From the NCBI GenBank assembly GCA_963755915.1, contig CAVWLP010000002.1, positions 4,704,001 through 4,768,000 on the forward strand: a stretch of DNA of 64,000 bases, read 5' to 3'. The notes under the pieces are model-generated. The model saw only the letters and a program-made list of their open reading frames with translations, made no database searches and was not told the DNA's origin. The first letter of the stretch is position 1; each line of letters opens with the position of its first letter. The DNA comes from an uncultured Phycisphaerales bacterium (lineage in GTDB: Bacteria; Planctomycetota; Phycisphaerae; Tepidisphaerales; Tepidisphaeraceae). This document shows positions 49,419 to 52,518 of the stretch, piece by piece. The position numbers were made by a program, and so were the translations under genes.

Positions 49419-50120
49419 ATGAGCACCACACCCGAAAGCCGCACCAGCCTTCAAACCGCCGGCGTGTTTGTCTACAGCCTTATCGCCGCGTGGTTCATCT
49501 TCGCCGTGACGATGGCTGCGACAGGCCAGTACGCCATCAACCCCACCCGTCCCCCACTGGTGTTCGGTTTGAGCGTCGCCGTCCCGATCCTCTTTTTCCT
49601 GATCGCCTACCGCCTGGACGGCCCCATCCGGCGCGTCGCCCAATGCCTCGATATGAGAGTCGTCGTTCTCGCCCACGTCTGGCGAATCGCGGCCCTGAAT
49701 TTCATTCTCGCTGCCGCCCAGGGCCGCCTTCCCATGGGCTTCGCCCTTCCCGCCGGCCTCGGCGACATGATCACCGCCCTGGCCGCGATCCCCATCGCCT
49801 TTGGCATCTCAAAAAATCTGCCTTCCATCCGAAGCTGGTTCATCGCCTGGAACCTCTTCGGCCTGCTCGACCTGGCCAACGCCGTCACCCAGGGAATCCT
49901 CCATTCCAGTAGCACCTTCGGCATCCTCACCGGCGCCGGCCCGACAACCTATCTGATGACCGTGCTCCCTCGGTCCCTGGTCCCCACCTTCCTGGTCCCG
50001 CTCTTCATCCTTCTGCACATGCTCGCGCTCTCTCGCCGCTCGGAGGTTCCGTCAACCGTATCGCAGCCGAAAAGCGAGCTCACGACCCCATGCGGATTCA
50101 TCCGATCCCTCGTCGCATGA
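49419..50120 (+). CDS. membrane protein commonly paired with MarR
   Basis: About six TM segments; H.WR, LP.GFALPAG.GD, WNLFGLLD, P.F.VP. Confidence 0.75.
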   Translation: MSTTPESRTSLQTAGVFVYSLIAAWFIFAVTMAATGQYAINPTRPPLVFGLSVAVPILFFLIAYRLDGPIRRVAQCLDMRVVVLAHVWRIAALNFILAAAQGRLPMGFALPAGLGDMITALAAIPIAFGISKNLPSIRSWFIAWNLFGLLDLANAVTQGILHSSSTFGILTGAGPTTYLMTVLPRSLVPTFLVPLFILLHMLALSRRSEVPSTVSQPKSELTTPCGFIRSLVA

Positions 50121-50146
50121 TGAGTTAGCGCCCTTCCACAAAATCC

Positions 50147-50190
50147 CTTGGCGTTCTTGGCGGTTATAAAGAATTTTTTAACCGCCAAGA
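50147..50190. repeat. REP-like palindrome interrupted by the IS (continues 51676-51693)
   Basis: CTTGGCGTTCTTGGCGGTT ... AACCGCCAAGA|CGCCAAGAGCGCCAAG. Confidence 0.75.
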
Positions 50191-50301
50191 AACTATGAAG
50201 CCGAGCCTTTCTCGGGACGTGAACGGGGTCAAAATGCCCCAAGTATGAACGAGCGTACCGCGTAGGTCGCTCAAACGTCTTTTTTGAGAAAGGACTCGGC
50301 A

Positions 50302-51345
50302 ATGCGAATTCTCGCTTTGGACCTGGGAAAGAACAAGAGCGTTTTTGTGGATTATGTCACCGGCGGTGGAGAAAGAACGTTCGGCAAGATCGGCACCAAT
50401 GCCCACGAGGTGCAAAAACTACTCGAGCGGGTGCGTCCGGATCGACTGGTCATCGAGGCCGGTCCGGCGGCAGGATGGGTTTGTGATCTGGCGGAGCGGA
50501 ACAATGTTCCCGTCCAGGTGGCCAATGGCAACGATGAACGCTGGCGCTGGAAGACGGTGAAGGAGAAGAGTGATCGTAAAGACGCGCTGAAGATGGCGGC
50601 GATGTCGGAGATGGATTCGCTGCCGACGGTGCACGTGCCCAAGGCATCGGTTCGGCAGTGGCGTTCATTGATTGAATACAGACACGGCCTGGTGGATCGC
50701 CGCACGGCGCTCAAGAACTCGATCCGATCAATCTACGAGCGGCAGGGTTTGTATTTGCCCTCGGCGACCAAGGCGTGGACGAAAGCGCGACTGGAGGAAA
50801 TGAGGAAGGAAGCAGCGGCCGCATCGGCGGAAGATCTGTGGCTGTTTCAGATCGGTTGTGAGGTGGCGCAACTGGAGCACCTGGAGAAGCAGATCGAAAC
50901 TGTCGAAAGCAAGCTTCAGGAGTTGGGCCAGGCCAACAAAGCGGTGAAACGATTGCAGGAGGTGCCCGGCGTTGGTCCGCGGCTGAGCGAGGCGGTGGCG
51001 GTGATCATTGATGATCCCAGGCGATTCAAGAATGCACGTCAGGTGGGATGTTACGTGGGTCTGACGCCGCGGCGCTGGCAGAGCGGCGACAGCGATCGCC
51101 AGGGGCGGATCAGCAAGGCAGGCAACGCGCTGCTGCGGGAGTTGCTGGTGGAGGTGGCGTGGCTGGGGGTTCATCGCAATACGTGGATGAAGGACGTGTA
51201 CGAGAGGGTTCTACGTGACAGCGAGAAGCGCAAGAAGATCGCGATTGTTGCGGTAGCCAGGAGATTACTGGTGAAGCTGTGGGCGATGCTGCGGGACGGA
51301 ACCCGATGGAGAGAACCCCAGCGATCGCTGACGGCGGCCACTTGA
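50302..51345 (+). CDS. IS110 family transposase (DEDD RuvC-like + Tnp20 domain)
   Basis: ILALDLGK, VIEAG, KSDRKDA, PGVGP, YVGLTP...QSG, ISKAGN..LR, AIVAVARRL; AAGGA RBS; frame intact. Confidence 0.95.
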   Translation: MRILALDLGKNKSVFVDYVTGGGERTFGKIGTNAHEVQKLLERVRPDRLVIEAGPAAGWVCDLAERNNVPVQVANGNDERWRWKTVKEKSDRKDALKMAAMSEMDSLPTVHVPKASVRQWRSLIEYRHGLVDRRTALKNSIRSIYERQGLYLPSATKAWTKARLEEMRKEAAAASAEDLWLFQIGCEVAQLEHLEKQIETVESKLQELGQANKAVKRLQEVPGVGPRLSEAVAVIIDDPRRFKNARQVGCYVGLTPRRWQSGDSDRQGRISKAGNALLRELLVEVAWLGVHRNTWMKDVYERVLRDSEKRKKIAIVAVARRLLVKLWAMLRDGTRWREPQRSLTAAT

Positions 51346-51655
51346 AAATCGAAAAGGCGATGACTGTCCCGACAAGTCGGTACAGGCGATGGAGTATCTC
51401 CCCTCCGGAAGACACCGTGTCAGAAAGCCGTTGTCTTCTGTGCAGGGGATTGAGTAGAGTTGAAGTGAAGTGGAATTGACGCGTTCGTGCAGGTTGAATG
51501 AGCAAGGCCAGACCCCGGTTGGCGTCTTAAGCTTCAAAGCTTGCCGCTAAGAATAGGGCTGGCCATTTGTACAGTTGAATAGGCCCGCCGCCAGGCGAGA
51601 GCACTGAATAGAAGGCTCACCCAATCGACCGCATGAGCGATCAACGCCCCTTGAC
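51346..51655 (+). ncRNA. predicted bridge/seek RNA of the IS1111-type element (boundaries approximate)
   Basis: Hairpin-rich non-coding end; loop 51506-51564 carries guides matching both target flanks. Confidence 0.75.
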
Positions 51656-51706
51656 AAGGCTCGGCTCATAGAAGACGCCAAGAGCGCCAAGAAATGAGGA
51701 GTTTTG

Positions 51707-51808
51707 CCCCACATAAATCAGATGGAAATCAGATTTTCAGACTGAATTATCTGTGTGCATCTGATTTCAATCTGACTTCGGCGAGCTCAGTCGAGGCGTG
51801 GCAAATCT
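51707..51808. repeat. nested palindromic repeats
   Basis: CAGATGGAAATCAGAT / ATCTGATTTCAATCTG inverted pair plus CTTCGGCGAGCTCAGTCGAG REP-like unit. Confidence 0.5.
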
Positions 51809-51819
51809 GCATTTCTGCG

Positions 51820-52098
51820 CTAAGGCTCTACTTTAAGCGCCACGTGCTGGACTTCGCGGGCGTATTTGATCGCGCGCTGAACAATCTCCGATCGTTCCTC
51901 CACCGACACCGGTGATTGGCTTCTATCGGGATTGATCCAGCTCTGAATCGAGTCCGTGTAAATCTGATAGTCACTCGACCATGTCCACGTCATCGAAACC
52001 CGCCGCCCCGATTCAATATACGTCAGCGTCTCGCCGCGAAAGTCGGCGTCGAAGTCATACTGATCGGTAAACCGATATGGCTGGGCGGATTCGCTCAT
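51820..52098 (-). CDS. small hypothetical protein, Imm74-like immunity protein candidate
   Basis: LTY.E.GR...IY.DSI.SW......VS.EER.EI pattern. Confidence 0.5.
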   Translation of the reverse strand: MSESAQPYRFTDQYDFDADFRGETLTYIESGRRVSMTWTWSSDYQIYTDSIQSWINPDRSQSPVSVEERSEIVQRAIKYAREVQHVALKVEP

Positions 52099-52227
52099 GG
52101 ATCTGATCATAGCCCGCGGAAGGTGAAAGCTGCCTGAGGGATTTGCACCGACACCCGCTGTCGCGACGTCACCTGCCGCAAGTGCATCATTGTAAGTTCC
52201 GGCTGGCGAAAACCAATGAATGTCTGT

Positions 52228-52413
52228 CACCGTCGCAGACTCGAAGCTCACTCCAGTCGGTGCAACGACCCGGCTCATAATTCCGTCGAAAGGCATGCGT
52301 GCGGCGACACCTTGAAGCCGACCCTTGTTCGGTTCCACCGTCGCCCGCATGGCGGTCATACCGGCCTTGTCCTTTGGGGTAACGGGATGAGTCGTAGAAT
52401 ATCCGTCGCTCAT
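52228..52413 (-). pseudogene. truncated N-terminus of an alpha/beta hydrolase (esterase)
   Basis: AAGGAG RBS; HPV...D..M.AMR..VEPNKGRLQGVAAR.PFD.IM..V.AP.GV.FE..TV then resemblance ends; no HGG or GxSxG. Confidence 0.5.
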
Positions 52414-52518
52414 GACATGCTCCTTTTCAAATCTCGAACCGGCCACCATGCACGCAACTGAAAATCCCCACCGATTTTTCAGCCATGGCCACGAGCCGTT
52501 TATGGAACGACCTTCATC

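Follow-up and report, generated by a model that had tools for sequence, protein, structure and literature searches.

A compact IS1111-group insertion sequence from a planctomycete with a probable target-reading guide RNA in its 3' non-coding end

How does an insertion sequence come to lie at one position of a host repeat, always in the same orientation, and does the long non-coding end behind its transposase gene carry an RNA that reads this position? The question is raised by an element of an uncultured Phycisphaerales bacterium found in a window of 64,000 nucleotides (the window being the whole stretch of DNA that was analysed; all positions given below are positions of this stretch). An earlier note on this DNA had proposed that the element encodes an RNA-guided recombinase of the IS110/IS1111 type, whose guide matches both flanks of its own insertion site. 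In our judgement, it is very probable (roughly 0.88) that the element is an intact, recently active IS1111-group member of the IS110 family with a guide RNA, of the kind known as seekRNA or bridge RNA, in its 3' non-coding end. The RNA-guide interpretation is supported by the following lines of evidence: (i) the protein family; (ii) the layout of the element; (iii) the order of the two guide arms; (iv) the presence of all nine genomic copies in the target; and (v) the covariation of arms and targets.

The insertion sequence occupies positions 50191-51671 of the forward strand and is 1481 bp long, as delimited by identical genomic copies. Its transposase/recombinase gene (50302-51345, forward strand) encodes 347 aa from an ATG, within an open frame that begins at TTG 50284. 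The protein matches Pfam families PF01548 (DEDD_Tnp_IS110; E 2.9e-10) and PF02371 (Transposase_20; E 2e-24) and has, in consequence, the combination that defines the IS110 family, namely, a DEDD (RuvC-like) N-terminal domain and a C-terminal PF02371 domain. Against the NCBIfam model NF033542, named 'IS110 family RNA-guided transposase', it scores 216.6 bits (cut-off: 140). The description of a compact, intact recombinase of about 347 aa agrees with the open frame and with the Pfam and NCBIfam matches. The translation contains the G-L-x-P-x4-S/T-G motif, which includes the catalytic serine, and this motif aligns with its counterpart in the ISCro4 transposase; pattern and Pfam match alone served to locate the four acidic residues. 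Among sequence relatives, solved structures exist in the PDB only for the transposases of ISCro4 and IS621, both of which align with the protein in the region of this motif. The elements most closely related to ours come from assemblies labelled Phycisphaerales and Pirellulales, which supports a planctomycete origin indirectly, and no plasmid-borne relative exceeds 40% protein identity.

Within the IS110 family, the layout of the element is that given for the IS1111 group under 'IS1111 and IS110 family features' by Siddiquee et al. (2024; PMC11187229), a layout also found in Durrant et al. (2024; PMC11208160). The group is characterized by subterminal inverted repeats of 7-17 bp and, here, a perfect repeat of 11 nt is present: the left copy (50199-50209) is 100% complementary to the right copy (51656-51666) in a repeat search, neither copy having a strand of its own, and they lie 8 nt (left) and 5 nt (right) inward of the element termini. 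The group also has a longer non-coding region downstream of the gene for the transposase; in this element, the left non-coding end measures 111 nt (50191-50301) and the right one 326 nt (51346-51671). Finally, IS1111 elements insert into one specific sequence in one orientation, as do 9 out of 9 copies here. Every family feature that can be tested in this material is therefore present, the element is of the IS1111 type, and the IS110/IS1111 assignment of the earlier note holds on the grounds of both the RNA-guided transposase and the group layout, in which the inverted repeats are subterminal, the left end is short and the 3' non-coding end is long. A search of positions 50000-51900 against Rfam 15 in E-value mode returned matches at chance level only and no bridge or seek RNA family.

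The genome to which the window belongs (6.6 Mb in 3 contigs, 81% complete) was searched for further copies. It holds nine copies of the element, seven of them identical at 1481/1481 positions and two at 1480/1481, all with open reading frames. The nine copies have identical flanks (left, 11 nt; right, 12 nt), which in the window correspond to the left half of the target (50180-50190, forward strand) and the right half (51672-51683, forward strand). The last 4 nt of the left flank (50187-50190) recur at 51672-51675 and are single in empty sites. When the flanks are joined with this overlap of 4 nt counted once, 22 empty sites are found elsewhere in the genome, both strands counted. No copy was seen in a target unrelated to the arms described below: all nine lie in the target that the arms spell. 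Nine near-identical copies with open frames, together with 22 perfect empty targets, point to recent spread.

Most of the empty sites fall within the arms of an intergenic repeat that is palindromic and REP-like, and the size of this repeat family is known solely from the 22 empty and 9 occupied sites. In the window, the left arm of the repeat (50148-50166, no strand assigned) is a similar site in its own right, lying on the opposite strand and unoccupied. At three of the nine occupied sites, the upstream partner arm is missing; a half-site is thus enough for insertion and the hairpin that the palindrome could form in DNA is not needed. A target of this type is known for ISPa11 (Siddiquee et al., 2024; PMC11187229) and also for IS621. 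Several side observations can be added on the repeat itself. It is built of a periodic unit of 8-9 nt, seen in the window at 50148-50190 and 51672-51692, and it is situated between two convergent open frames (49419-50120, forward strand; 51820-52449, reverse strand). Some copies have a 14-nt insertion in one arm, which is also found in the genome that harbours the closest relative of the element (91% protein identity), suggesting that the two genomes are close kin. Just to the right of the insertion site, at 51716-51775, there is a near-perfect inverted repeat, which surfaced only as a chance-level match to a miRNA model.

The part of the element that would read this target is a loop in the long 3' non-coding end, and the coordinates given for its stem, hairpin, arms and flanks in the earlier note proved correct on re-reading. 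All its parts lie on the forward strand. The outer stem is formed by 51506-51515 and 51556-51564, as indicated by folds and covariation, and an inner hairpin occupies 51529-51542, five of its six pairs having changes on both sides. Between stem and hairpin lie two arms: (i) arm 1 (51519-51528), the putative right-target guide, complements the top strand of the overlap and right flank; and (ii) arm 2 (51544-51553), the putative left-target guide, has the same sense as the left flank and overlap and would pair with the bottom strand. Arm 1 is, as had been claimed, a perfect 10-nt complement of 51672-51681, a pair also found independently, at 100%, by the repeat search. Arm 2 (51544-51552) matches the left flank at 50182-50190 in 8 of 9 positions, and the lone difference, at 51548, permits a G.U pair with the bottom strand. 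The match to the top strand lies 5' of the match to the bottom strand, and the two matches overlap in the target.

The two arms differ in how readily such matches could arise by chance, as estimated from 5000 dinucleotide-preserving shuffles of the 326-nt non-coding end. An exact complement of at least 10 nt to the 15-nt right flank appeared in 9 of the 5000 shuffles, and the 9-nt left-flank word, with at most one mismatch, in 439; the joint criterion of a right-flank complement of at least 8 nt plus the left word was reached in 10. Arm 1 is therefore significant by itself, and arm 2 alone is weak and not significant.

These figures leave room for a different account, according to which the likeness of arms and flanks is a passenger, either a captured piece of host repeat or a product of chance, and the protein picks its target through the hairpin of the repeat. 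The abundance of the target repeat, whose 8-nt unit is enriched in the window (11 matches versus 3.7 expected), is in line with such an account, as are the non-significance of arm 2 alone, the likeness between the guide arms and the arms of the repeat, and the pairing of the guide arms with one another in the free-RNA fold. Nevertheless, three of the nine copies occupy half-sites that lack the upstream palindrome partner, a change of 3 bases in arm 1 accompanies a shift of the site by 8 bp in the closest relative, and relatives with unrelated targets have unrelated arms which, borne on the same covarying scaffold, fit their own flanks. The passenger account is hence extremely improbable and strongly disfavoured.

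Covariation of arms and flanks, as read from related sequences, is the decisive evidence for the guide reading. The closest relative (91% protein identity; assembly labelled Phycisphaerales; exactly 4 genomic copies) has three changed bases in arm 1 and the same arm 2. In all four of its copies, the insertion point lies 8 bp farther on in the same repeat, where the 4-nt overlap next occurs, and the right flank there fits the new arm 1 at 10/10 positions in three copies and at 7/10 in one. L067, a relative of 90% found on a metagenome contig, shares both the arm alleles and the site of the window element. At 46-72% identity (L068, L069, L065, L032, L070/L071, L074 and L072), the scaffold of the loop is kept and the arms are unrelated. 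Arm 1 gives longest Watson-Crick runs of 10, 10, 7, 10, 8, 7, 10 and 8 nt on its own right flank, versus a mean of 3.0 and a maximum of 6 on non-cognate right flanks in the same matrix of cognate and non-cognate pairs. The corresponding values of arm 2 on its own left flank are 5, 5, 9, 8, 10, 4, 5 and 8 nt (11, 9, 12, 8, 10, 4, 5 and 8 nt if G.U pairs are allowed), versus a mean of 4.2 for non-cognate pairs; arm 2 discriminates less well because the left flanks of many relatives end alike. As a side observation, a second, different IS1111-type element lies directly upstream in one relative (L075, 1256-1321 and downstream), the two being adjacent or nested.

A covariance model of the loop (R1) retrieved further elements of 36-40% protein identity from three complete or near-complete genomes and three more contigs. 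In these, the complement of arm 1 adjoins the right end (9-12 nt) and the identity to arm 2 adjoins the left end (8-9 nt). One of the genomes (G344) has alleles that differ at two positions of arm 2 and at the same two positions of the left flank (L036 as opposed to L050 and L057), which reads as natural retargeting within one genome, with two putative left-target guides matching different left flanks. All in all, 14 of the 15 elements or alleles have an arm 1 that fits their own right flank, the exception being L073, in which the best run is 6 nt and lies away from the junction. Arm 2 reaches at least 8 nt of Watson-Crick pairing in 9 of 14 elements or alleles, needs one G.U to fit in two (the window element and the 91% relative), fits but for one mismatch in another two (L074 and L073) and is weak in one (L070, 4 nt). 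In L033 and L076-L078, relatives of 42-44% identity, the same model detected no loop at E <= 1; among the 150 of 1915 candidates scored with it in the own genome of the window element, there were no orphan guide genes, only the nine copies. The earlier note had named covariation of loop arms with flanks in homologous elements as one means of checking its reading and, in the relatives compared here, changed arms do accompany changed targets. Judging by these natural variants, the guide is probably reprogrammable.

The scaffold that holds the arms is conserved by pairing. In a loop alignment of 10 sequences, the consensus fold comprises the outer stem and the inner hairpin and leaves both arms unpaired. 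Ten of its 15 pairs have changed on both sides among the ten relatives, and 88.4% of cells pair, versus 72.9 +/- 2.2 with shuffled partners (0 of 500 shuffles reached the observed value) and 17-41% when the partners are slid. The arms had been described as unpaired, and this is correct for the family consensus fold, but the minimum-free-energy structure of the free RNA joins the one to the other by 6 bp (51519-51524 with 51545-51550), and the cost of holding both open amounts to 8.8 kcal/mol. This arm-arm pairing arises because the target is nearly palindromic.

Complementarity alone cannot separate a DNA guide from an RNA guide, and the segments could act as single-stranded DNA of the right end that pairs with the target, as in elements of the IS200/IS605 type. 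Such a DNA guide is, in any case, very unlikely. The stems contain G.U-compatible changes which, like the one in arm 2, fit RNA pairing, and the transposase belongs to the same family as the IS1111 members that have been studied. For three of these (ISEc11, ISPa11 and ISKpn4), the experiments described in Siddiquee et al. (2024; PMC11187229) show that the non-coding end gives rise to an RNase-sensitive RNA that co-purifies with the transposase and is needed in trans.

The RNA is probably larger than the loop at 51506-51564 to which it had been confined: the loop lies where it had been placed, but the guide probably extends over about 51482-51639, as a three-way junction. In the minimum-free-energy fold, this region forms a closing helix, the target loop and a second hairpin, all on the forward strand. 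The predicted closing helix, P1, pairs its 5' strand (51482-51503) with its 3' strand (51615-51639), and a long-range closing helix of this kind was obtained for 10 out of 10 relatives folded singly. The second hairpin, P4 (51583-51602), lies between two candidate donor segments and was recognized from the fold and by eye in relatives. The consensus fold of a longer MAFFT alignment (A2) contained only 9 pairs, all in the target loop, and recovered neither the closing helix nor the second hairpin; the three-way junction, based on single-sequence folds and reading by eye, is therefore provisional.

Two forward-strand segments in the strands of this junction are candidate donor guides, which would read the ends of the element itself. 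The candidate left-donor guide (51606-51614) is a third guide-like segment. Its final 7 nt (51608-51614) are identical to 51668-51674, a stretch made up of the 4 nt that close the right end and the 3 nt that follow them. Past these shared 4 nt, the identical prefix in 12 cognate rows measures 3, 3, 3, 4, 4, 4, 8, 4, 4, 2, 2 and 5 nt, with a cognate mean of 3.8 versus 0.70 for non-cognate rows, and in 10 of the 12 the segment reproduces the right end together with the 3-8 nt after it. The candidate right-donor guide (51573-51576) is weak: its 4 nt, themselves conserved, are the complement of the conserved first bases of the left end (50191-50194); both sides have changed together in L033 and partly in L072, and not in L076.

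The core had been described as 4 nt long. Such a stretch is indeed covered by both arms and is single in the empty site, but a crossover core of 2 nt, probably a purine/pyrimidine-G step, fits the relatives better. The 4-nt core suits the window element and L070 and misfits L069, L065, L032 and L074. A 2-nt core placed one base in suits L069, L065, L032, L070, L074 and the elements of G043 and G344, and reproduces the tandem repeat unit around L069; under this model, the ends of the element move one base outward, to 50190 and 51672. Neither model fits L033 or L076-78. A more tentative proposal, which we regard as possible and rather doubtful, is that the guide RNAs of this clade within IS1111 form a three-way junction, with the target loop as one arm, the donor bases in the junction strands and a 'handshake' that is mirrored in being on the bottom-strand guide. 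As part of this reading, the left-donor guide would consist of the right end, the 2-nt core and one base more, which would match the base at which the right half of the target begins. The one base beyond the core in the left-donor segment does match the target in most relatives, and does not in the window element and its two nearest relatives. To our knowledge, a mirrored handshake on the bottom-strand guide has no experimental description for IS1111.

Directly after the transposase stop codon, the non-coding end has a hairpin module (51385-51446, forward strand) which it shares with IS21-like elements of the same genome and may not belong to the guide. This module of about 60 nt recurs, at 84-93% identity, immediately behind istB in the 3' ends of two IS21-like variants; of its 52 hits in the genome, 9 are in the IS1111-type element, 10 and 30 in the two IS21-like variants, and 3 are single. 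The IS21-like element (with a gene for an istB-type ATPase; L010, 1-3058) has about 40 copies in the genome and is far commoner there than the IS1111-type element. The right ends of L068 and L074 have the hairpin module at differing places. It has no Rfam family (Rfam 15) and a search with 51378-51450 in 300 other genomes of the phylum did not find it at E <= 0.001. It may be a shared RNA-processing or 3'-end element.

Regarding expression, a scan of 50100-51760 for sigma-70-like promoters and intrinsic terminators returned none. An integrated element with neither an internal promoter nor a terminator agrees with expression from a junction promoter as in ISEc11, in which the promoter is completed at the junction of the circular form (Siddiquee et al., 2024; PMC11187229). 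A candidate half of such a promoter is an outward-facing -35-like hexamer (51651-51656, forward strand), 15 nt from the right end; six compact relatives have a similar hexamer at this distance, and in L033 and L076-78 its distance is 2 nt greater. Located by hand, the best candidate for a -10 across the circle junction matches at 3 of 6 positions only, which leaves the junction promoter at the level of a suggestion. Twenty sequencing runs were listed, two of which are RNA libraries, and in these data parts of the element that have no contig cover carry no meaning. A metatranscriptome run (X9) yielded an identical 205-nt contig over 51305-51509 and another (X20) yielded contigs of a relative of about 90%, among them one over 51477-51675 at roughly 95% identity, the contigs of both runs being devoid of strand or end information and compatible with DNA carry-over. 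The loose ends of the contigs of the latter run spell the site of the 91% relative. Expression of RNA from the non-coding end is thus only weakly indicated.

It could also be that the guide is real and the element is now inert in its host, the nine copies being a fossil family. Neither a circular form nor a junction read nor excision was seen in the contigs of the four runs examined, which were without joints, and this is what a fossil family would give. Yet, the nine copies agree at 1480-1481 of 1481 positions, all have open frames, and 22 perfect empty targets are left, a pattern of recent spread; an inert family is accordingly very improbable.

For an active, RNA-guided element, the observed anatomy, site specificity, stem covariation and covariation of both arms with the flanks suggest the following sequence of events. 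The long 3' non-coding end would be transcribed together with the transposase gene and the non-coding transcript would fold into the guide RNA (seekRNA or bridge RNA), which probably works bound to the transposase, a putative DEDD/serine recombinase. The loop at 51506-51564 would be the target-binding loop: arm 1 would pair with the top strand in the right half of the target and arm 2 with the bottom strand in the left half, the short stretch covered by both arms being the presumed place of strand exchange. In this manner, the guide would direct insertion to a single position in the palindromic repeat of the host and to a single orientation. By analogy with known members, the element probably moves through a circular intermediate whose junction would form the promoter.

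The mechanism itself was already published in 2024 (Durrant et al., 2024; Siddiquee et al., 2024) and knowledge of it is left unchanged by the present finding. In the account by Siddiquee et al. (2024; PMC11187229), the seekRNA of ISEc11, ISPa11, ISKpn4 and ISPst6 lies, as here, in the non-coding region downstream of the transposase gene; the seekRNAs of IS1111 elements also have the top-strand complement 5' of the bottom-strand complement, overlapping in the target (section 'A seekRNA finds the target'); and these elements share with ours the subterminal inverted repeats and a transposase of 330-350 aa. The same account gives ISPa11 a repeat (REP) as target and describes a natural redirection between the close relatives ISEc11 and ISXne4. 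Compared with the seekRNA elements, the protein described here is distant (as stated, plasmid-borne relatives stay within 40% identity) and, in contrast to ISEc11 and the other seekRNA systems, the guide is known from sequence alone. In comparison with the ISEc11/ISXne4 pair, the redirection takes place between much closer elements (91% protein identity) and shifts the site by one unit (8 bp) of a periodic repeat, only one arm being changed, at 3 bases.

With the bridge RNA of IS621, as presented in Durrant et al. (2024; PMC11208160) and Hiraizumi et al. (2024; PMC11208158), the element shares an internal loop with two opposite-strand guides flanking a short core, as well as, putatively, further segments that match the ends of the element itself. 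In contrast to the IS621 arrangement given there, the guide is at the 3' end instead of the 5' end, the order of the guides is reversed, and the putative donor segments are in junction strands and not in a second internal loop. For many IS1111 orthologues, Durrant et al. (2024; PMC11208160) place the donor-binding bases in a multi-loop, which agrees with the fold obtained here, with its candidate donor guides in the junction strands. As regards the handshake guides of IS621 described in Hiraizumi et al. (2024; PMC11208158), the extra matching base is here on the guide that would read the bottom strand, which is not the handshake guide of IS621.

What the element adds is a cleanly decodable, compact (347 aa) RNA-guided recombinase, as the evidence indicates, from a poorly sampled soil lineage. 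If true, the mirrored handshake would help to explain why IS1111 donors need flanking target for their movement. For the organism, the guide reading accounts for nine insertions and a repeat family in its genome. Of greatest use is the naturally occurring pair of arm-1 alleles, in which 3 base changes between 91%-identical elements go together with an insertion point moved by one repeat unit, and which provides a ready test of the minimum changes that retargeting would take.
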